From: Escherichia phage Bp7
Direction: 5' to 3' (one strand)
Sequence record: NC_019500.1
Length of the DNA stretch: 64,000 nucleotides
Positions 1,594 through 11,648 of this stretch are shown here, piece after piece (position 1 is the stretch's first letter; each line of letters starts with the position of its first letter). The notes under the pieces were generated by a model, which saw nothing but the letters and a program-made list of their open reading frames with translations, did no database searches and was not told the origin of the DNA. A program made the translations under genes and the position numbers.

Positions 1594-1917
1594 ATGGAAC
1601 TTCCTATTAAAGCGGTCGGAGAATATGTTATTCTCGTTTCCGAACCAAAACAAGCTGGTGATGAAGAAACTACTGCATCTGGTATCGTTATTGGCAAACT
1701 TCATCAAGGTGAAATCCCTGAACTTTGTGAAATTTATTCTGTAGGACCTGATGTCCCTGAAGATTTTTGTGAAGTAGGCGATTTGACTCCACTTCCTGTT
1801 GGTAAGATTGCTAACGTGCCTCATCCTTTGGTTGCATTGGGTATTAAACAACCTAAAGAAATTAAACAAAAATTCGTTACCTGTCACTATAAAGCTATTC
1901 CTTGTCTTTATAAGTGA
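1594..1917 (+). CDS. 31: co-chaperonin for GroEL (GroES-like, capsid folding)
   Basis: 107 aa; near-identical in stretches to remembered T4 gp31 ([12 protein letters not shown]...[17 protein letters not shown]). Confidence 0.92.
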
Positions 1918-2063
1918 TATAAATAATAATATGGATTGGCTGCCGGACTAGTTAGTTAACCGGAGAATCCTAAGCGGTGGACTACAACTGAGAGACTTGC
2001 CGAAAGGAAGTGAAATTCAGAAGAACGTGTCCACCAATCTTTATCTCGAATTGAGAAACTAAA

Positions 2064-2312
2064 ATGAACAAACAATTGAATCACGCTCTTGAACTGCAAC
2101 GCAACGCTTGGAACAACGGTCACGAAAACTACGGCGCATCTATTGATGTTGAAGCCGAAGCACTGGAAATCCTGCGTTATTTCAAACATCTGAATCCTGC
2201 TCAGGCTACTCTGGCTGCTGAACTGGAAGCTAAAGATGAACTGAAATTTGCTAAGCCTTTGGCTTCAGCAGCTCGTAAAGCAGTACGTCATTTTATTATT
2301 ACCCTGAAGTAA
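2064..2312 (+). CDS. rIII: probable rIII lysis-inhibition accessory protein
   Basis: 82 aa ORF in the T4 rIII position between gene 31 and the gene 30 region; size matches. Confidence 0.5.
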   Translation: MNKQLNHALELQRNAWNNGHENYGASIDVEAEALEILRYFKHLNPAQATLAAELEAKDELKFAKPLASAARKAVRHFIITLK

Positions 2313-2575
2313 ATTAAATCGAGGAGCCGTCGAACTGTTTGATTAATGATTTGCGAATCATTATAGTTTTAAGACCCCAACAGTTTTACGGTGTACCTCT
2401 TGAATGTATTTTGTACTATCACGCGTCAGAAAAAGGTTATCTGTCTAAGCCGTGGTCGGTATGATGACGAGGTTTATGGTTATCCTGTCGTTAAATATCC
2501 GAAACCTATGTTCCCCTTGAGGGCTTGCGCAGGCAACGCCAATAAGTCCTGCATCCTAATTTAAGAGATTTAAAA

Positions 2576-2737
2576 ATGGCTAAGAAAGAAGTTAAAGTAG
2601 TTGACGGTACCTCTAAACGCGCTGGTTACAAGCGTGCGTCCAACAAGCGTATCAATCAGGTAGTTGATAAGCTTCAAGCTCGTGCTCGTGCAGTATTGCG
2701 TGCAGATGCTGCTTGCTTTGGTAAGCCTCAGGCATAA
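2576..2737 (+). CDS. small basic hypothetical protein (53 aa)
   Basis: Own reading: ATG 2576, TAA 2735-2737; followed immediately by a strong intrinsic terminator. Confidence 0.35.
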   Translation: MAKKEVKVVDGTSKRAGYKRASNKRINQVVDKLQARARAVLRADAACFGKPQA

Positions 2738-2740
2738 GTT

Positions 2741-2772
2741 ATGGGACTCTTCGGAGTCCCATTTTTGTTTCT
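2741..2772 (+). terminator. intrinsic terminator hairpin GGGACTC-TTCG-GAGTCCC plus T-run
   Basis: Perfect 7-bp stem, tetraloop, TTTTTGTTT tail. Confidence 0.65.
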
Positions 2773-2788
2773 AAATCTTTAAAAAAGG

Positions 2789-2858
2789 GTGTACATCTCC
2801 GGTAGGCATGATACTATAGACATGTACCAAATAATACGAAAACAAACTGGAGAATAAA
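2789..2858 (+). promoter_or_regulatory. early promoter and conserved leader/RBS cassette (copy A)
   Basis: TGTACA-N17-TACTAT then tagacatgtaccaaataatacgaaaacaaactggagaataaaATG, shared with copy B. Confidence 0.5.
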
Positions 2859-3191
2859 ATGAAAACTGTAAATCTGAATGCATCTGTTAAAGCTAAATGT
2901 TTCAACGGTGAATATCAAGAAACCATGTGGGTCCTGACTGCAGTTGAAGGTGATATCATCGAAGTTGAAACAACTGAAGGTATGGGTACTGATTTTACAT
3001 TCACCATCGAGCTTCACAACTTCTTTACAGGTTGGATTTATGAACTGAAAACTGTAATTACTGGTCGTATTGAAGAAAACAAAAATGGTGAATTCTATTA
3101 TGTTAATGCCCGTACACGTGCTGAACGTCTGATTGCTCAGATGAAAAAAGTTGGTAAACTTGATATGAAAAATTGGAATGTTGTGAAATAA
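2859..3191 (+). CDS. hypothetical early protein
   Basis: 110-aa ORF directly behind repeated leader. Confidence 0.6.
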   Translation: MKTVNLNASVKAKCFNGEYQETMWVLTAVEGDIIEVETTEGMGTDFTFTIELHNFFTGWIYELKTVITGRIEENKNGEFYYVNARTRAERLIAQMKKVGKLDMKNWNVVK

Positions 3192-3194
3192 ATG

Positions 3195-3264
3195 TTTTAC
3201 TTTGGTACAGGTTGTGTTATTATAGACCTGTACCAAATAATACGAAAACAAACTGGAGAATAAA
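3195..3264 (+). promoter_or_regulatory. early promoter and conserved leader/RBS cassette (copy B)
   Basis: About 44 nt identical to copy A except one base, ending in GGAGAATAAAATG. Confidence 0.5.
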
Positions 3265-3630
3265 ATGAACTACATCAACTTCGAACGTAAATATGTTTCT
3301 AACGGTATCGCTGGTTCTTCTGAAGTTATTTGCCTGTGGAAACACAACAACGGCGCGGTGTGCGAAATCGAACAGTGCATGACTCCTAACTACGTTTATA
3401 TGCGCTTTGAAAATGGTATTACGGTTTCAATCACAATGGAAGGTTCTACTTTTAAAATCGCTTTAGATGATGATTTCCGTCAACGTGATTTAGGTACCCA
3501 TCCTTGCTGGAACGGTTCTAATCGTAAGCTTCTGGTTAAAACCTGGATTCGTCACATCCTGAGCAACCGAGCTAAACCTGAACACCTGGAAGCAATCTTT
3601 GATGTAGTTCTGAATGAATTCGATATCTAA
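3265..3630 (+). CDS. hypothetical early protein
   Basis: 121-aa ORF behind leader copy B; not a paralog of the 2859 ORF. Confidence 0.6.
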   Translation: MNYINFERKYVSNGIAGSSEVICLWKHNNGAVCEIEQCMTPNYVYMRFENGITVSITMEGSTFKIALDDDFRQRDLGTHPCWNGSNRKLLVKTWIRHILSNRAKPEHLEAIFDVVLNEFDI

Positions 3631-3671
3631 TCTTAAAAATGGAGGCTTCGGCCTCCTTTGAGGAAAATATT

Positions 3672-3959
3672 ATGTTTATGACCACTTATTTTGATACTCG
3701 TAAAAATTTCTGTGAAGTTGTTTTCTCTAAAGCAGGTAAAGATGTTCCTGCCGACAAACAACCTACTCGTGAATCTATTAAGGCTTATGCCGATGTTGTA
3801 TGCCCGGTAGAATTCCGTACTGTTAATGGTCGTGATACCCTAGCAATCACTAAGCTAAACCATGATATCAATATCGACCCAAGTGTCGCCCGTGAAGTCA
3901 ATACCTCTGACATCTATGGTGGTAATGTTAAATCACATGGCTTTCAGATGAGGTTCTAA
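3672..3959 (+). CDS. hypothetical protein
   Basis: Start moved to ATG 3672 (GAGGAAAA RBS); the upstream ATG at 3639 lies inside hairpin GGAGGCTTCGGCCTCC. Confidence 0.45.
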   Translation: MFMTTYFDTRKNFCEVVFSKAGKDVPADKQPTRESIKAYADVVCPVEFRTVNGRDTLAITKLNHDINIDPSVAREVNTSDIYGGNVKSHGFQMRF

Positions 3960-4153
3960 TGCAACTATTCTTATCACAAACTGTTCAGCTAAAAGGTGTA
4001 GGTATTCCTGGAATGATTTCAAAGGTTCTACCTGCTTTTAAATTAGGTAATGTTACTATTAAAGAAGCCTACACCGTCCTATGGGTCGATGGAACTGAAG
4101 ATGTTCGCATGGGTGGTGAACTGTCTGTAATCAAATGTTTAAAGCGAGGATAA
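3959..4153 (+). CDS. hypothetical protein
   Basis: 64-aa ORF, overlapping stop/start with neighbours. Confidence 0.4.
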   Translation: MQLFLSQTVQLKGVGIPGMISKVLPAFKLGNVTIKEAYTVLWVDGTEDVRMGGELSVIKCLKRG

Positions 4154-4154
4154 T

Positions 4155-4370
4155 ATGGTTAAGAAATTGATTCAGAAATTATTAGGTACGGAAATGGTCG
4201 AAGTGACTTATCGTGTGACTGATGTTTCTCCTCATACGGCAGACCATTTAGAACCTTATATCATGACAATTAAAATGGCCAAATATGACGGTGGTTTATC
4301 CATTGAAGACCGTCTGCCAGGTTACGGGCATTGGGCTGATGTCGAAATTATAAGTGTCAAAGATGTCTGA
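4155..4370 (+). CDS. hypothetical protein
   Basis: 71-aa ORF. Confidence 0.4.
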   Translation: MVKKLIQKLLGTEMVEVTYRVTDVSPHTADHLEPYIMTIKMAKYDGGLSIEDRLPGYGHWADVEIISVKDV

Positions 4371-4821
4371 GTTAGAAATCAGAAGTAATTTTCCGTGGCC
4401 ATCGTGTGCATTAAGTAACTTTGCTAAATGGCCTTTCGTTATGGATGGTATCCAATTTGGAGGGCTCGAAGGATTCCTCCAAGGGTGTAAGGTGAGAAAT
4501 CATGAACAACAAAAACGTATATTTGGGATGTCCGGTCTGGCCGCACAACAAACTGGAAGAGCTTATGCAAGAGCTGCGGACCGTGGGACGCTTTTCTGGC
4601 TTGGAATTCCCTTTTCAAGATACTCTACATCATGGAAAGAGTTGTATACAAATGCATATTTTGAAGCAGCGCTCCAAAACAAAGGATTCCGCGACGCATT
4701 ACAAGCTACAAAGGGCAAAGTTTTAAAGCATTCGATGGCGAGCCACCTTACAGAATGTGATACAATACTAACTGAAAAAGAGTTTATCGACATCCTAAAC
4801 AAATTGAGAGATTTATTATGA
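4354..4821 (+). CDS. NADAR / YbiA-like (DUF1768) domain protein, putative ADP-ribose-processing N-glycosidase/hydrolase
   Basis: LSNFAKWPFVMDG...EGFLQGCK matches the YbiA-family signature (FSNFAAWP..DG...EHYFQA.K); alternative start ATG 4363. Confidence 0.6.
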   Translation: MSKMSELEIRSNFPWPSCALSNFAKWPFVMDGIQFGGLEGFLQGCKVRNHEQQKRIFGMSGLAAQQTGRAYARAADRGTLFWLGIPFSRYSTSWKELYTNAYFEAALQNKGFRDALQATKGKVLKHSMASHLTECDTILTEKEFIDILNKLRDLL

Positions 4822-5456
4822 AACCAGTTATCTTAACAGATATCGATGGAGTATGTTTAAGTTGGCAGTCCGGCTTGCCTTATTTCGCACAGAAATATAA
4901 TTTGCCTTTAGAACATATTTTGAATATGATTCAGGACGAACGTTTCTTATCTCCTGGTGAGCTGTTTAATTGTGATAATGAATTAGGCGCTCGTTTAATC
5001 GAGAAGTACAATCAGTCAGATTTTATTCGTTATCTGTCTCCTTACATGGACGCATTAAAACATATCAACAAGCTCAAAAAAGACTTCGATTTTGTAGCCG
5101 TGACTGCGCTAGGCGACTCAATTGATGCACTGCTGAATAGACAATTCAATTTGAATGCTTTGTTCCCTGGCGCATTCAAGGAGATTCTGATGTGTGGTCA
5201 TTCAGAATCAAAAGAAGACCTCTTCATAAGAGCTAAAAATACGTACGGTAAACGTATTAAGTTTTATGTTGATGATTTGGCTCACCACTGTGATGCTGCA
5301 TCTAATGTTCTCATGGATATCCAAGTTTATTGGTTAGCTCGTGGTGAACGTGACTTTAAACCTAATTTAGCCGTAAAGGTTAATTCATGGGACGATATCG
5401 CAGCAATCGAATCCCTTCGTAATAATGCCGCAGTTGAATGGATTGCTCGAGGTTAA
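4818..5456 (+). CDS. HAD-superfamily hydrolase-like protein (phosphatase/nucleotidase-like)
   Basis: N-terminal VILTDIDGV resembles HAD motif I (DxDGT/V); ATGA coupling to upstream gene. Confidence 0.5.
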   Translation: MKPVILTDIDGVCLSWQSGLPYFAQKYNLPLEHILNMIQDERFLSPGELFNCDNELGARLIEKYNQSDFIRYLSPYMDALKHINKLKKDFDFVAVTALGDSIDALLNRQFNLNALFPGAFKEILMCGHSESKEDLFIRAKNTYGKRIKFYVDDLAHHCDAASNVLMDIQVYWLARGERDFKPNLAVKVNSWDDIAAIESLRNNAAVEWIARG

Positions 5457-5457
5457 T

Positions 5458-5736
5458 ATGTTTGTAGTTCATACAATTTCAGACTATGGTCCTACCACTA
5501 CAATGGATTATGGTCATGTAAACCAGTTTATTCGTCATGTGAATCATGATTACTCATTTGATGTAAATCCGGCTAAAGACCATCCTGTTTGGCGCGAATG
5601 CGTCGAACAGGGATTCATTTATGTCCACTTTATGTCCAAGTTCAAATCTGATGGGCGAATGAGATTTGTGTTCTCTTATCATAAGCGATTAGACTTGCTT
5701 TTGGCTGATGTGGCTTATAATAGAATCCATGACTAA
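5458..5736 (+). CDS. hypothetical protein
   Basis: 92-aa ORF starting just after previous stop. Confidence 0.4.
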   Translation: MFVVHTISDYGPTTTMDYGHVNQFIRHVNHDYSFDVNPAKDHPVWRECVEQGFIYVHFMSKFKSDGRMRFVFSYHKRLDLLLADVAYNRIHD

Positions 5737-5746
5737 TGAGGTGATT

Positions 5747-7270
5747 ATGATTTTAGATATTTTAAACGAAATTGCTGCTATTGATTCTACTAAAGCTAAA
5801 GAAGCCATTATTGCTCGTGAAAAGGACAATGAGCTTCTGAAACGTGTTTATCGTATGGCTTATACCCGTCGTCTGAACTACGGTATTAAAAAGTGGCCAG
5901 AACCTGGATTTACATCTCAATCCTTTGGTATGATTACTCTTGAAGACCTTCTTGATTTCGCTGAATTCACATTAGCCACACGTAAGATTACGGGTAATGC
6001 GGCTATTGAAGAACTGGCTCAAATCATTGCTGATGCTAAGGCCCCGGATGCCGAGGTATTACGTCGTGTAATGATGCGCGACCTTGAATGTGGTGCATCG
6101 ATTTCTATTGCTAACAAGGTTTGGAAAGGTTTAATCCCTGAACAACCGCAGATGTTGGCGAGTTCTTATGATGAAGCTTTGATTAAGAAAAATATTAAAT
6201 GGCCAGCGTTTGCTCAATTAAAAGCTGATGGCGCTCGTTGTTTTGCTGAAGTTCGTAACGATGGTGTGACATTCCTTACTCGTGGTGGTAATGAATATCA
6301 AGGGCTTAATCTTTTGGCGGCTGAATTAATGGCCATGACCGAAGAAGCTCGCCAGCGCCATCCTAATGGTGTTATGATTGACGGTGAATTAGTTTACCAT
6401 ACTCCTAAGGTAGAACCTAAAGCATCTAATGATTTGTTTAGTATGTTTGATGAGGAACTTCCTGAATTAAGTAAGGCTAAGGAATTCCAAACTGTCGCCG
6501 ATCGTTCTACGTCAAATGGATTGGCTAATAAGGCTCTTCAAGGAACTATTACTCCAGCCGAAGCAGCCGGTATGGTATTACAGGCGTGGGATTATGTCCC
6601 ATTGGATGTCGTATATTCCGAAGGTAAAATTAAAGGCGATAAGTATGATGTACGCTTTACAGCCTTAGAACTTATGGTTGCTCATAATGTCGTATTGCAT
6701 GGTGCAACGCGTGTTGAAGCTATCGAAAACCAGTGGGTTAATAATCTTGAAGAAGCTAAAGTTGTTTATAAGAAATATGTCGACCAGGGCCTGGAAGGCA
6801 TTATCCTTAAGAACATGGACTCCTACTGGGAAAACCGCCGTTCTAAGAATCTTATCAAGTTCAAAGAAGTAATCGATATTGCTTTAGAAGTGGTAGGTTA
6901 TTATGAACACTCGAAGGACCCTAACAAACTTGGTGGTGTCGAGTTGGTATCGCGTTGTCGTCGAATTACAAGTGACTGCGGTTCAGGCTTTAAAGATACC
7001 ACCCATAAGAAAGATAAATCAGGTAAAAAGGTATTAATTCCATTGGAAGACCGTCCTGATTTAGACCGTGAACTTCTTATGAAACAAGCTCGTGAAGGTA
7101 AGTTGATTGGACGTATTGCTGACTGTGAATGTAATGGTTGGGTTCATTCTAAAGGACGTACTGATACTGTAGGTATTTTCCTTCCAATCATTAAAGGTTG
7201 GCGTTTCGATAAAACAGAAGCTGATACATTTGAAGATGTATTCGGTGATTGGTCTCAAACTGGTCTATAA
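5747..7270 (+). CDS. 30: ATP-dependent DNA ligase
   Basis: MILDILNEIAA...; adenylation lysine motif AQLKADGARCF; ...NTFEDVFGDW C-terminus as in T4 gp30; start moved to ATG 5747 with GAGGTG RBS. Confidence 0.95.
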   Translation: MILDILNEIAAIDSTKAKEAIIAREKDNELLKRVYRMAYTRRLNYGIKKWPEPGFTSQSFGMITLEDLLDFAEFTLATRKITGNAAIEELAQIIADAKAPDAEVLRRVMMRDLECGASISIANKVWKGLIPEQPQMLASSYDEALIKKNIKWPAFAQLKADGARCFAEVRNDGVTFLTRGGNEYQGLNLLAAELMAMTEEARQRHPNGVMIDGELVYHTPKVEPKASNDLFSMFDEELPELSKAKEFQTVADRSTSNGLANKALQGTITPAEAAGMVLQAWDYVPLDVVYSEGKIKGDKYDVRFTALELMVAHNVVLHGATRVEAIENQWVNNLEEAKVVYKKYVDQGLEGIILKNMDSYWENRRSKNLIKFKEVIDIALEVVGYYEHSKDPNKLGGVELVSRCRRITSDCGSGFKDTTHKKDKSGKKVLIPLEDRPDLDRELLMKQAREGKLIGRIADCECNGWVHSKGRTDTVGIFLPIIKGWRFDKTEADTFEDVFGDWSQTGL

Positions 7271-7271
7271 T

Positions 7272-7454
7272 ATGAAAGCTTATTTAGAAACCGTGGTTAT
7301 TGGATATAAAGAAGGTGGGGATGTCTCCACTGCAGTGTCCCAAATTGTCCTTGAATTTGAAAATGAAATCGCGTTCGCTGATTTTAAAGATAATTTCGAC
7401 CGCTATGAAAAGGGTCCTAAATTTGAAGTGTACCGTACGCTGTTAGTACTTTAA
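7272..7454 (+). CDS. small hypothetical protein
   Basis: 60-aa ORF between ligase and alt, followed by hairpin terminator. Confidence 0.35.
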   Translation: MKAYLETVVIGYKEGGDVSTAVSQIVLEFENEIAFADFKDNFDRYEKGPKFEVYRTLLVL

Positions 7455-7456
7455 TA

Positions 7457-7476
7457 AAGGCCTTCGGGCCTTTTCT
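7457..7476 (+). terminator. hairpin AAGGCC-TTCG-GGCCTT plus T-run
   Basis: Read directly. Confidence 0.5.
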
Positions 7477-7508
7477 GGCATAAATAAGGTTATTAAAGAG
7501 GAATTATT

Positions 7509-9593
7509 ATGACCGAACAATTAAATGAAGTGTTTGAGTCCGAAGGCACACTGCCTACAGTAAACTTGAACCCAAAACTTAAAGTACCCCAGATTTGGAA
7601 GATTGGTGACGCAGAATCCCAATTAGTGGCGCGTATGGTATCCTACGCTTCTGAAGGTGATGCTATTAAACAGGTTAAGATGGGTGATAAATATGCCCAC
7701 GTTATCCTTATGAGCCTTTCAGCTAAAGGTTCGCCTGCCGAACTTAAAGGTGGCCTAGGCCCTACTCCCGTAGATGCGATTAATACTATTTTTGATGTGG
7801 TTTATGACCAAGTTAAAAAGCTTCGTATGGATGCCGTGATGTTCCGTTTCCCTACTAAGAAAATGAAAGGTCAAGGCCCTATCGTTCAACGGATTATCCA
7901 ACGTTTGGTAGCACAGAAAACAGGTGGACGTTTTAAAGTAGTTCCGGCTATGTACCAATTTACCGGTAAACATACTTATATCCTAGTAGTTCGTAAACAG
8001 GCTGATATCGAAGATATCAAAGGTATGCCAGGAATTAATGCCGAATTATACACTAAGGTAGATTCTGATGTCGGTGAAGTTTATATTTCTAAAAAAGAAG
8101 GCGTGCAGGTTACTAAAGAAACTGCTATTGCCGGCAGTATTGCTAAAGTTGAAGAACGTCGCACTGATAAAATGGTTATAACCAAGACTAAGATTTCTCG
8201 TCGTGCCATTGCAGCAAGTCAATCGTTAGAATCTTATCGTAATGAAAGTGAACTGTTTAAGAAATATGAAGCAAATGCCGTAGATTTTAATAAACCTGCA
8301 ACAGCTCCATTAATCCCTGAGGCCCAGGAAATGGTTACTAATAACAATTCTCCCGCGGCTAAAAATAAGGTTGCTAATATAGTAGCTGAAGGTACTGCTG
8401 AAGAATTGCATTATGATTATAAAATGTTTCCTCTTCACGGTATAGGTGAAATCCAAGAGAAAATTAAAGATAAAATTCTTGCGGCCATCAAAAACGAACC
8501 TTTGACATCTGTTAAAGCTCTAGAAAAATATGCCTCTGCTATTAATACCGTTTTCGAAGAATACAAAGGTGAATGGCTGGCCCGGCATAACAAAACTCGT
8601 AAAGGCCAACCTGACGACCTCTGGAATGAATTGACCGATGCGAAGTGGAAAGCCGCCAAGACCAAGTTCATTAAAAAACGTGTATATAGTTTTGCCGGTG
8701 TAGGTGGCGGTATTATGGTCGATATTACTATTGCTCGTGAGGGCTCTAAATATACCCCATCACAAAAGCGCGGCATCAGAGAATATTGTGGCTCAGGATA
8801 TACAGACATAAATAATCTTCTTTTAGGACGCTATAACCCTCAGAACTATGAGGTTATGGGCGAAAAAGATATCGAATCTGCAGTTAATAATTTGGATTCT
8901 GCTTTTGAAAATGGCGACCGTATACCAGAAGGCATCACAGTTTATCGTGCACAGAGTATGACTGCTCCTATATACGAAGCACTAGTTAAAAATAAAGTGT
9001 TCTATTTCAGAAATTTTGTATCCACTTCATTGACTCCTATCATTTTTGGACGTTTTGGTGTTACACACGCCGGTATCGGTCTTTTAGAACCGGAAGTTCG
9101 CGATGAATTGACAGTCGATAAAAATGAAGAAGGAATAACTATTAATCCTAATGAAATAAGAGCATATAAAGAAAATCCTGATTATGTTAAAGTTCAAATA
9201 GGATGGGCTATTGATGGGGCTCATAAAGTTAATGTCGTATATCCAGGAAATCTCGGAATAGAAACTGAAGCCGAAGTTATTCTACCGCGTGGATTAATGG
9301 TCAAAGTTAATAAAATAACAGATGCTTCTAATAATGATGGAACAACATCTAGTAATACAAAACTCATCCAAGCTGAAGTTATGACAACAGATGAGCTTCA
9401 AGAATCTGTGGTATATGATGGTGACGTACTAATGGAAACCGGCGAGTTGGTCGTATATAAAGATGACTTCGATACTTCCGAAAGCCCTGTATCTTTTGAT
9501 TCATTTGTTAAATCTACACGGTTTGATGTATTGCCTCTTTTGGCTTCATGCATAGACCTCTATGACATCCCAGAAAAATTCATCCAAGGGTAA
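7509..9593 (+). CDS. Alt-like ADP-ribosyltransferase, divergent paralog 1
   Basis: 694 aa; ART R/STS/ExE elements (QKRGIREYCGSGY, FYFRNFVSTS, ETEAEVILPRGL); N-terminal LNE motif consistent with prohead protease processing. Confidence 0.85.
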   Translation: MTEQLNEVFESEGTLPTVNLNPKLKVPQIWKIGDAESQLVARMVSYASEGDAIKQVKMGDKYAHVILMSLSAKGSPAELKGGLGPTPVDAINTIFDVVYDQVKKLRMDAVMFRFPTKKMKGQGPIVQRIIQRLVAQKTGGRFKVVPAMYQFTGKHTYILVVRKQADIEDIKGMPGINAELYTKVDSDVGEVYISKKEGVQVTKETAIAGSIAKVEERRTDKMVITKTKISRRAIAASQSLESYRNESELFKKYEANAVDFNKPATAPLIPEAQEMVTNNNSPAAKNKVANIVAEGTAEELHYDYKMFPLHGIGEIQEKIKDKILAAIKNEPLTSVKALEKYASAINTVFEEYKGEWLARHNKTRKGQPDDLWNELTDAKWKAAKTKFIKKRVYSFAGVGGGIMVDITIAREGSKYTPSQKRGIREYCGSGYTDINNLLLGRYNPQNYEVMGEKDIESAVNNLDSAFENGDRIPEGITVYRAQSMTAPIYEALVKNKVFYFRNFVSTSLTPIIFGRFGVTHAGIGLLEPEVRDELTVDKNEEGITINPNEIRAYKENPDYVKVQIGWAIDGAHKVNVVYPGNLGIETEAEVILPRGLMVKVNKITDASNNDGTTSSNTKLIQAEVMTTDELQESVVYDGDVLMETGELVVYKDDFDTSESPVSFDSFVKSTRFDVLPLLASCIDLYDIPEKFIQG

Positions 9594-11648
9594 ATGATGG
9601 AAAATTTAAACGAAGTTTTTGATAGCGATTCCGCTAAAAACTATCCAGTAATAAATCTTAAACCAGGTTCCGGTATCCCACAGATTTTCTCTATTAAAGC
9701 ACCGGGTAATGATAACCTGGTTGCTCGTATGGTATCTTATGCGTCTCAAGGAGACGCTATTAAAATGGTTAAGCCGGGCGACAAATATGTCCACGTTATT
9801 CTAATGAGTTTGTCAAGCAAGGGTGCTCCGGCTGAACTCAAAGGTGGTCTTGGTTCTGACCCACTCGGTACGCTGAATACCATTTTTGATACTGTATACG
9901 AACAAGTAAACAAACTTAAAATGGATGCGGTTTTATTCCGTTTCCCTACCAAGAAAATGAAAGGTAAGGGCCCTACTGTTCAGCGTGTATTAGCTCGTTT
10001 GGCTATGGCTCGTACTGGTGGTAAGTTTAAAGTTGTTGATGCCATGTACCAATTCACTGGAAAACATACCTATGTTCTTTTAGTACGTCGTGGCACTAAT
10101 ATTGAAGATATCAAGGGTATGCCTGAAATTGATGCCGAACTTTATACTAAGGTTGAGTCCAAAGTTGGCGAAGTTTATGTTTCTAAGGAAACCGGCCAGT
10201 CCGTAAGTAAGGCCGAAGCTGTCTCGGCAAGTATAGCTAAGGTTGAAGAGAAACGTACTGATAAGGCCGTCATTACCAAGACTAAGATTTCTCGTCGTGC
10301 TATTGCTATGTCGCAATCCTTAGAATCGTCACGATTTGAAACTCCTATGTTTAAGAAATTTGATTCTAATGCTGCTGAATTGAATAAACCGGCTACGGCT
10401 CCTTTAATGTCAGAAGCAAATGAAATAAAGGTTATTTCTAATTCTTTCTTGGCTTTAGAAAATACCATTAGTGCTAATACTGGTGGTATGTCGTTTAAAG
10501 ACAACCTTCTTATTCCAGAAGATAAAATGGAAGAAATTAATACCGACATAAAAATGAGAGCTTTTGAGAAATTACATGGATTAAATGTGACTTCAGTAAA
10601 AGCCCTAGAAAATTATGCTTCAGTGGTTGATGACGTCATCGAAGAATATAAAGGTCCTTGGCTTCAAAAGCTAATGGCTCAACATTCACACCTAGGTTAT
10701 CACGAAGCAGTCGAGTTGGCTGAAAATTCTTGGAATGCTATAAAGACCAAAATTATTCAACGTGAGCTGCGTGTTTACGCTCTTACCGCCGGTTGGCAAT
10801 TGCATTCTATTATAGAAAATAAAGACGCGTCTCGTTATACTCCTGCCCAGAAACGTGGTATTCGTGAATATGTTGGCTCCGGTTACGAAGATATGAATAA
10901 TGTTCTTTTAGGTCTCCATGACCCGAATGTAAGAAGCAGTATTCTGACTAATGAAGACATAGAAAAAGCTATCAATAACTTAGATTCTGCTTTTGAAAAT
11001 GGCGAACGTCTACCACCAGGTATTACTCTTTATCGTTCCCAACGAATGATTCCTGATATTTACTTGGCTATGATTAGCAATAAAGTATTCTATTTCAGAA
11101 ACTTTGTTTCAACTGCGATATATCCGAATATTTTTGGTACATGGATGACTGATTCTGGTGTTGGTCTTTTGCCTGACGAAAAACGTCGTGATGTTGCATT
11201 AGACAAATCGGATGAAGGTTTAGTATATTCGAATAAAGATACTTTAGTAGGTATTGGTTGGGCCTTTACCGGTACAGATAAGGTAAATGTCGTTTTACCT
11301 GGTGGAGACTTGGCTCCTTCTAACGAAATGGAAGTAATTCTTCCTAGGGGTTTGATGGTCAAAATCAATAAAATTACAGATGCTTCATACAATAACGGAA
11401 CTACTCGTTCTAACAATAAGTTCGTTCAAGCCGAAGTAATGACTGCAGACGAACTTAATGAAGCCGTGGTGTACGATGGTGATGCTCTGATGGAAACAGG
11501 CGAACTAGTTGTCTATAAAGAGGGTAATGAGCTTTCTTTTGATTCTTTTGTTTCTAATGAGAAGAAAAAGAAATCAGACAGAGGTCTTGGCTTGTTAGCT
11601 TCTTGTATAGATATCGACGCTCTCCAGTATAAATTTGTACAAGGGTAG
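9594..11648 (+). CDS. alt: Alt ADP-ribosyltransferase (packaged, modifies host RNA polymerase), paralog 2
   Basis: 684 aa; QKRGIREYVGSGY, FYFRNFVSTA, NEMEVILPRGL, C-terminal LLASCIDI...KFVQG shared with paralog 1. Confidence 0.88.
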   Translation: MMENLNEVFDSDSAKNYPVINLKPGSGIPQIFSIKAPGNDNLVARMVSYASQGDAIKMVKPGDKYVHVILMSLSSKGAPAELKGGLGSDPLGTLNTIFDTVYEQVNKLKMDAVLFRFPTKKMKGKGPTVQRVLARLAMARTGGKFKVVDAMYQFTGKHTYVLLVRRGTNIEDIKGMPEIDAELYTKVESKVGEVYVSKETGQSVSKAEAVSASIAKVEEKRTDKAVITKTKISRRAIAMSQSLESSRFETPMFKKFDSNAAELNKPATAPLMSEANEIKVISNSFLALENTISANTGGMSFKDNLLIPEDKMEEINTDIKMRAFEKLHGLNVTSVKALENYASVVDDVIEEYKGPWLQKLMAQHSHLGYHEAVELAENSWNAIKTKIIQRELRVYALTAGWQLHSIIENKDASRYTPAQKRGIREYVGSGYEDMNNVLLGLHDPNVRSSILTNEDIEKAINNLDSAFENGERLPPGITLYRSQRMIPDIYLAMISNKVFYFRNFVSTAIYPNIFGTWMTDSGVGLLPDEKRRDVALDKSDEGLVYSNKDTLVGIGWAFTGTDKVNVVLPGGDLAPSNEMEVILPRGLMVKINKITDASYNNGTTRSNNKFVQAEVMTADELNEAVVYDGDALMETGELVVYKEGNELSFDSFVSNEKKKKSDRGLGLLASCIDIDALQYKFVQG

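Follow-up and report, generated by a model that had tools for sequence, protein, structure and literature searches.

The window analyzed here, meaning the whole 64,000-nucleotide stretch of sequence record NC_019500.1, comes from Escherichia phage Bp7, a T4-like phage of the genus Dhakavirus that is 98% identical to phage IME281. Its gene order follows that of T4 one for one (cd, 31, rIII, 30.9 ... 30.4, 30.3, 30.2, 30.1, 30 (DNA ligase), alt), and the region described below corresponds to its 30.4-30.3-30.2-30.1-30 (DNA ligase) block. A 3.7-kb stretch spanning genes 30.3 and 30.2 is 97–98% identical to Dhakavirus phages, e.g., IME281, MX01, WG01, and QL01. The features of the block and its downstream neighbors are as follows.

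4155–4370, plus strand: orthologue of 30.4, 71 amino acids, hypothetical protein (PHROG 2042, E 2.5e-35; arrangement as in T4).
4363–4821, plus strand: orthologue of 30.3 (adfN), 152 amino acids, NADAR fold, predicted DNA ADP-ribosylglycohydrolase (PF08010, alignment with T4, fold).
4818–5456, plus strand: orthologue of 30.2, 212 amino acids, predicted HAD-superfamily (DxD) phosphatase-type protein with a C1 helical cap, short form.
4818–4821, plus strand: ATGA shared by the end of 30.3 and the beginning of 30.2 (translational coupling), read from the sequence; a −4 overlap is also present in T4.
5458–5736, plus strand: orthologue of 30.1 (DUF3045; PF11243, E 5.9e-16), with the boundaries of the IME281 CDS.
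5747–7270, plus strand: gene 30, ATP-dependent DNA ligase (PF01068, E 4.2e-23).
7509–11648, plus strand: two tandem full-length Alt-like ADP-ribosyltransferase genes (7509–9593 and 9594–11648; PF03496, E 4.7e-35 and 5.4e-26), Alt in IME281.

The start of 30.1 lies 1 nt past the 30.2 stop, and its PF11243 match begins at residue 12 of a longer ORF. When positions 1900–7600 were scanned for transcription signals, promoter-like sites did not exceed the shuffled expectation (13 found versus 15 expected), and no convincing terminator was found between 30.4 and the ligase gene; this lack of signal fits co-transcription from 30.4 to the ligase gene and is uninformative.

An initial annotation of this DNA had described, within 4354–5456, a 155-residue ORF with an SNF...DG motif coupled to an ORF with a DIDGV motif, and both are present with these motifs and with the layout expected for translational coupling. 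The first (4354–4821, plus strand, GTG start, 155 amino acids) includes SNFAKWPFVMDG, and the second (4818–5456, plus strand, ATG start, 212 amino acids) begins MKPVILTDIDGV and carries the motif D8-I-D10-G-V. Profile matches to Pfam PF08010 (Phage_30_3; E 3.9e-64, 215 bits against a cutoff of 36) and PHROG 652 (E 4.6e-50) for the 30.3 product, and to PHROG 420 (E 1.5e-70) for the 30.2 product, identify the two ORFs, at the level of sequence, as real genes and not chance ORFs.

The start codon first proposed for 30.3 is probably incorrect. In T4, 30.3 encodes 152 amino acids; its start precedes the 30.4 stop by 8 nt, and its end lies 4 nt past the 30.2 start. Initiation at ATG 4363 in Bp7 likewise yields 152 amino acids, with the very 8-nt overlap between its start and the 30.4 stop that T4 shows, and the product aligns with T4 gp30.3 over 152/152 residues with no gaps (86% identity, 22 substitutions). 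Because of this shared overlap and gap-free alignment, 30.3 probably starts at ATG 4363; the in-frame upstream GTG 4354 would not be used, and the 155-residue reading would be 3 codons too long. Residues are numbered from ATG 4363 throughout, which places the N-terminal motif at S18-N19-F20-A-K-W-P...D28-G29. An identical (100%) protein is encoded in public phage genomes (loci L003 and L004). The protein is usually labelled hypothetical or left uncalled in public genomes, and the closest RefSeq record contains the 30.3 gene without annotation.

The 30.3 product is a member of the NADAR superfamily, as the initial annotation had proposed in calling it NADAR/YbiA-like, and the evidence for this is solid even though Pfam NADAR itself does not recognize the window protein directly. 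No match to Pfam NADAR (PF08719) was found at E≤0.1, PADLOC returned no match, and the only NCBIfam match was to TIGR02464 over the N-terminal motif, at 13 bits against a cutoff of 73.7. PF08010 is a sister family of NADAR; among 36 homologues of the protein, 36/36 matched PF08010 and 6/36 also matched PF08719 (best E 1.5e-7). A family profile searched against PDB sequences gave a weak match to YbiA (E 0.028) over the SNF...E...Q...K motif, and hhalign of the family profile against E. coli YbiA gave a probability of 91% (E 1e-6), with S18-N19-F20, E36, Q40, and K43 aligned. The AF2 model of the protein has a pLDDT of 94.2 and a pTM of 0.89. When this model was compared with the PDB by Foldseek, the top three matches, with probabilities of 0.99–1.00, were YbiA (2b3w), PnNADAR from Phytophthora (8bau), and the DarG1-type GlNADAR from Geobacter (8bat); these are the three solved NADAR structures, and every other PDB match had E>1. 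The model thus has the YbiA fold, in which small β-sheets flank a core of helices.

Residues E36, K43, and H123 are invariant in 37 homologous sequences, down to 36% identity. In NADARs, a Glu and a Lys contact ADP-ribose and an acidic residue of the last strand is catalytic (PMC11543638), this last-strand catalytic residue being Glu in YbiA, Asp in BC4488 and the DarT-linked NADARs, and His in the phage gp30.3 subtype (PMC11125620, PMC11543638). The ADP-ribose-contacting equivalents are E43/K50 in PnNADAR, E88/K95 in C7 NADAR, and E36/K43 in T4 AdfN, and E36 and K43 of the Bp7 protein align by hhalign to the Glu and Lys of YbiA. H123 lies in the model strand E120-122/123 at the position of the glutamate of YbiA 'LVE' ('KLVEH'), as placed by eye on the YbiA sequence, the hhalign alignment ending at residue 122. 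A C-terminal helix, residues 138–151, is predicted in the AF2 model, and residues 138–152 are present with no frameshift.

Experiments on function come from the orthologue in T4, where gp30.3 was renamed AdfN (anti-DarT factor NADAR; gene adfN) by Johannesman et al. in 2025 (PMC11825919). T4 gp30.3 hydrolyzes guanine-ADP-ribose, but not thymidine-ADP-ribose, in DNA (PMC11125620). Purified AdfN strips ADP-ribose from DarT1-modified DNA, which the E36A variant does not, and E36A and K43A each give only partial rescue (PMC11825919). Without adfN, T4 and T2 no longer form plaques on DarTG1 hosts, and phage RB69, whose own adfN carries a frameshift and is missing the final 15 residues, is DarTG1-sensitive and is rescued by AdfN expression (PMC11825919). 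The initial annotation's suggestion of a role in countering DarT-type toxins thus agrees with what is known of the T4 orthologue, which removes ADP-ribose from DarT1-modified DNA and is necessary for DarTG1 resistance in T4 and T2 (PMC11825919, PMC11125620). The same study reports that AdfN(T4) neither detoxifies DarT1 in uninfected cells nor fully rescues non-T-even phages; it works fully only during T-even infection, and the authors suspect an additional phage protein (PMC11825919). Because AdfN(T4) fails in these settings, the simple picture of one enzyme acting by itself is incomplete.

Bp7 30.3 resembles T4 adfN in its position between 30.4 and 30.2, its 8-nt and 4-nt overlaps, its E36/K43/H123 residues, and its intact C-terminal helix. 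It differs in its 22 substitutions and its Dhakavirus origin, and its activity is taken from T4: we infer by analogy that the 86%-identical Bp7 allele would act as T4 AdfN does. The protein also shares with DarG1 (BC4488 family; Geobacter lovleyi 8bat, E. coli C7 NADAR) the fold (Foldseek 0.99) and the equivalent Glu and Lys, and the literature describes the same reaction on guanine-ADPr DNA for DarG1 and for phage gp30.3. Unlike DarG1, 30.3 is an 'orphan' with no adjacent DarT gene, flanked instead by the phage genes 30.4 and 30.2; it has His123 in place of the catalytic last-strand Asp, it is 152 rather than 219 (8bat) residues long, and AdfN(T4) does not substitute for DarG1 in uninfected cells (PMC11825919). 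E. coli YbiA (2b3w) is the best structural match (E 7e-5, TM 0.69), and the motif SNFAxWP...DG...E..FQ..K occurs in both proteins, but they are only 18% identical and the counterpart of His123 in YbiA is a Glu. The gene for YbiA belongs to a host operon under LexA control, and YbiA does not relieve DarT1 toxicity (PMC11125620).

These comparisons suggest the following course of events. In a host carrying the DarTG1 abortive-infection system, its toxin DarT1 places ADP-ribose on guanine N2 in phage DNA and so blocks replication. AdfN, a small stand-alone NADAR, would, by homology, hydrolyze the N-glycosidic bond between ADP-ribose and guanine N2 in the DNA, with E36 and K43 predicted to hold the ADP-ribose and H123 of the last strand predicted to replace the catalytic Glu/Asp of cellular NADARs. 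Removal of ADP-ribose during infection would then allow the phage to replicate in DarTG1 hosts.

The product of 30.2 is supported by motifs and fold as a predicted HAD-superfamily phosphatase-type enzyme, in line with the HAD identity first suggested for it. It shares 74% identity with residues 1–191 of T4 gp30.2, the part with the HAD core, and like its T4 counterpart it is encoded between 30.3 and 30.1; the T4 protein ('hypothetical protein' in RefSeq) is 278 residues long, whereas the 212-residue Bp7 form is without the Pro/Tyr/Asn-rich C-terminal tail of T4. In 37 sequences, D8 and D10 (motif I, DxD), K132 (motif III), and D152-D153 (motif IV) are invariant, and T96 (motif II) is conserved in ≥90%. 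A DxD motif I is typical of phosphotransferases rather than dehalogenases. The structural model has a Rossmannoid HAD core with a cap. Among curated HMMs, the window protein matched only Pfam NT5C (E 0.074, 13.4 bits against a cutoff of 24.8), and NCBIfam gave none; among 36 homologues, PF00702 was matched by 5/36 (best E 3.5e-4) and NT5C by 1/36. The 30.2 family profile found nothing meaningful among PDB sequences (an amidase at E 0.044 and a nucleotidase at E 0.29).

An HMM search against PF08719 and HAD families had been proposed initially as a check on both identities. Because neither window protein has a significant direct match, NT5C at 13.4 versus 24.8 bits included, this check taken literally would look negative. 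The companion check, conservation of catalytic residues on alignment, came out in favor: E36, K43, and H123 are kept in the NADAR protein, and D8, D10, K132, D152, and D153 in the HAD protein.

Structural neighbors of the 30.2 model at similar scores comprise 5'(3')-deoxyribonucleotidases, sugar phosphatases, a HAD pyrophosphatase, and dehalogenases. Sequence identity is 12–18% to C1-capped phosphatases of HAD subfamily I such as the 5'(3')-deoxyribonucleotidases 2jao, 4mum, 3bwv, and 6g2n. Two candidate assignments were rejected. A substrate cannot be read from these neighbors, since phosphatases, pyrophosphatase, nucleotidases, and dehalogenases score about equally, and a specific identity as a 5'(3')-deoxyribonucleotidase (NT5C, PF06941) fails because the HMM match is below the gathering score and the nucleotidases are not better structural matches than the others. 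In HAD enzymes, a C1 cap favors a small-molecule substrate over a nucleic-acid end. The protein would be a Mg2+-dependent HAD phosphatase with a DxD nucleophile/acid-base pair, and from its C1 cap we infer a small phosphorylated substrate, possibly a (deoxy)nucleotide; any statement on what it acts upon has this conditional standing. Our literature search found no paper on gp30.2. Homologues bear source names such as 'FMN phosphatase YigB' and '5'(3')-deoxyribonucleotidase', which are generic automated labels.

Taken together, we favor, at a probability of about 0.85, the reading that 30.3 encodes AdfN, which would counter DarTG1, and that 30.2 encodes a HAD phosphatase-type enzyme linked to the ligase gene. 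Orthology, catalytic residues, folds, and gene order were computed here, and the activity and the DarTG1 counter-defense come from the T4 orthologue.

The closest competitor of this reading holds that the NADAR and HAD proteins form a two-enzyme unit, gp30.2 being the T-even factor that AdfN needs, which would process ADP-ribose, ribose-5-phosphate, or a phosphorylated lesion intermediate. To examine the pairing, we used two sets of loci: 80 IMG/VR loci found by a search with the NADAR protein and 75 loci found with the HAD protein (30.2), 74 of them with an ORF. The ATGA/−4 overlap is kept in all 13/13 close Tevenvirinae-type loci and in some that are more distant (L141 and also L016), and within the NADAR-found set a 30.2-type HAD gene lies 0.5–1.2 kb downstream of the NADAR gene in KP15 and in five further loci. 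In about 60 more distant loci of the gp30.3 family, no 30.2-type HAD gene occurs within 4 kb. The neighbors in these distant loci are heterogeneous, the 59 non-redundant flanking ORFs falling into 29 Pfam families, none of them present in more than 2 members.

The HAD-found set points to a different partner. In 70/74 loci, 30.2 is followed by a ligase gene in the same orientation, usually within 0.3 kb or overlapping it, whereas only 36/74 have a NADAR gene within 1.3 kb upstream. Judged by where the two genes fall on the contigs of the two locus sets, at least 8 complete genomes carry both genes about 50–60 kb apart; in IMGVR_UViG_2706796796, for example, the NADAR gene is near 68 kb and the HAD gene near 122 kb. 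On the strength of these linkage counts and distant-pair genomes, 30.2 has its stable partner in the ligase gene, the NADAR gene being a mobile neighbor. The ATGA overlap is real, but the pairing is lineage-specific, and because it is not conserved across the family, the joint role that the initial annotation had attached to the NADAR-HAD pair is unsupported.

The sole comparative hint for a partnership is that HAD genes of two unrelated families sit directly beside a NADAR gene, each in its own T4-like lineage. The second case is Vibrio phage Va3, where the HAD gene overlapped by the NADAR gene is of another kind (Pfam NT5C, E 3e-12) and resembles 30.2 around motif I only. A NADAR-HAD fusion, suggested by the 296 positions of the PHROG 652 profile and by the label '32.4 kDa' on the Va3 NADAR, was considered and rejected: Va3 has two overlapping genes and a mislabel. 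Longer forms of the gp30.3 family, of about 200 residues, do exist.

The dependence of AdfN on T-even infection, with the suspected extra phage protein, also favors a partner (PMC11825919), and RB69, in which ectopic AdfN works, carries 30.2 (H75). The missing factor could, however, be any of about 250 other T-even proteins, and purified AdfN by itself strips ADP-ribose from DNA in vitro (PMC11825919). With the loose linkage and heterogeneous neighborhoods described above, we regard the two-enzyme unit as improbable. A similarly low likelihood attaches to gp30.2 being the in vivo T-even factor of AdfN, or, in a looser version, to a 30.3-30.2-30.1-ligase module that would remove ADP-ribose and then repair the DNA; as a cheap first candidate for the dependence of AdfN on T-even infection, gp30.2 may nevertheless merit attention.

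The two ADP-ribosyltransferases that the initial annotation had noted about 3 kb downstream are present (7509–9593 and 9594–11648), at a distance of 3.15 kb when measured from where the pair begins and 2.05 kb from where it ends, but their proximity does not hold up as a functional hint, being the gene order of T4. They might suggest that the NADAR protein reverses or edits the ADP-ribosylation of host proteins or RNA by the phage's own Alt, ModA, or ModB, inasmuch as both Alt-type genes follow the pair on its own strand at 2–3 kb. Alt targets arginine in proteins, a linkage different from guanine-ADPr, which counts against such a reversal. A survey that found NADAR genes of T4-like phages to be early and expressed along with ADP-ribosyltransferases would fit it (PMC9503650). 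Against this, the ligase and other genes separate NADAR from Alt, in a T4 order that is inherited, and in many T4-like genomes the NADAR gene is elsewhere, with no Alt homologue found within 4 kb. All reported gp30.3 activity concerns guanine-ADPr in DNA, and the phenotype of the deletion is specific to DarTG1 (PMC11825919, PMC11125620); our literature search found no test of NADARs on Arg-ADPr. Given the ancestral T4 order, the relatives with no nearby Alt gene, and the activity on guanine-ADPr in DNA, the proximity of NADAR and Alt is synteny and not evidence of a functional link or of Alt reversal, which we consider very unlikely.

A metabolic role, whether as a YbiA-like N-glycosidase in riboflavin-intermediate damage control or as a destroyer of soluble ADP-ribose-derived immune signals (an idea proposed for phage NADARs in PMC9503650), with the HAD protein as the matching salvage phosphatase, is equally remote: the match to TIGR02464 (riboflavin-intermediate N-glycosidase) over the N-terminal motif and the phosphatase and nucleotidase names of 30.2 homologues speak for it, but that match is far below its cutoff, those names are automated, the Glu that defines the YbiA family is an invariant His in the 30.3 family (also PMC11125620), and the T4 protein acts on DNA with a loss phenotype specific to DarTG1 (PMC11825919). 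The riboflavin metabolism or nucleotide salvage that the initial annotation had also entertained for the NADAR protein is disfavored on these same grounds.

The reading of 30.3 as AdfN and of 30.2 as a ligase-linked HAD enzyme places Bp7 within biology that is not new, the NADAR/DarTG1 relationship having been published for the T4 orthologue in 2024–2025. To this the present analysis adds that the Dhakavirus 30.3 allele has kept all residues and elements of known importance, that the 30.3 gene is missing or mislabelled in reference annotations, and that 30.2 is a genuine enzyme gene conserved across its family, whose stable genomic partner is the ligase gene and not the NADAR gene. It predicts that Bp7 would be resistant to E. 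coli carrying DarTG1, a property that would bear on host range and on the choice of phages for therapy.

The product of gene 30.2, a HAD-type protein, occurs in a short and a long form, both of which are found within the Tevenvirinae. In the window (4818-5456) it is the short form of 212 residues, while the T4 protein (L002, 4475-5311) and those of many relatives comprise 270-316 residues, the long forms carrying a poorly conserved C-terminal tail rich in Pro, Tyr, and Asn. Of the 74 loci scored after a search with gp30.2 (L086-L160), 70 carry the DNA ligase gene after the 30.2-type HAD gene in the same orientation, often with the two overlapping; across these loci, the linkage of 30.2 to the ligase gene is much tighter than its linkage to the NADAR gene. 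We found no discussion of the 30.2-DNA ligase gene linkage in the literature. The Schizotequatrovirus Vibrio phage Va3 (L084, 3007-3955) has a NADAR gene of the gp30.3 type that shares 14 nt with a HAD gene other than 30.2, a member of the NT5C family; downstream of this HAD gene lie the exonuclease subunit genes rather than the ligase gene.

The starts of the mechanically called ORFs at window positions 5425-5736 and 5708-7270 are probably placed too far 5'. The most likely start of gene 30.1 (DUF3045) is the ATG at 5458, and that of the ligase gene is 5747, both as annotated in the closest phage, IME281. A scan of window positions 1900-7600 for terminators identified a strong candidate, located directly 3' of the 30.9 gene:

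2741-2762, + strand, strong terminator-like hairpin with a 9-bp stem (5 G-C pairs), a TTCG loop, and a T-run

From 30.7 to the ligase gene, the same scan found nothing comparable, consistent with a single transcript running from 30.7 through gene 30.

In reference records, the NADAR gene is absent or wrongly labeled. The IME281 RefSeq record has no CDS for it at the equivalent of window 4363-4821 (L001, 5769-6215; NC_055740, 43534-43980), and its notes on the neighboring genes are off by one, with 'gp30.3' placed on the HAD gene and 'gp30.2' on the DUF3045 gene. In Va3, the NADAR gene is labeled 'putative 32.4 kDa protein', the old name of gp30.2. The methods of PMC11125620 give the T4 gp30.3 construct as 'residues 1-208'; T4 gene 30.3 encodes 152 residues. 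Forms of the gp30.3 family of approximately 200 residues are present in metagenomes (P0040, P0046, P0056, and P0113).

Gene 30.3 also contains a counterpart of the internal ORF annotated in T4 as 30.3':

4502-4726, + strand, 30.3' counterpart, in the +1 frame inside gene 30.3

This 76-codon frame is open with the same boundaries in the window, T4, and nine other Tevenvirinae loci, and is closed in locus L017 and in KP15. Its amino acid divergence far exceeds that of the 30.3 frame, and, judged from these sequences, 30.3' is probably under no selection of its own.

Beyond the ligase gene, the window contains tandem paralogues:

7509-9593, + strand, full-length Alt-like ADP-ribosyltransferase, 694 residues
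9594-11648, + strand, full-length Alt-like ADP-ribosyltransferase, 684 residues

In contrast to these two full-length copies, T4 has a single alt gene together with alt.-1 and alt.-2, which are remnants of an old duplication.
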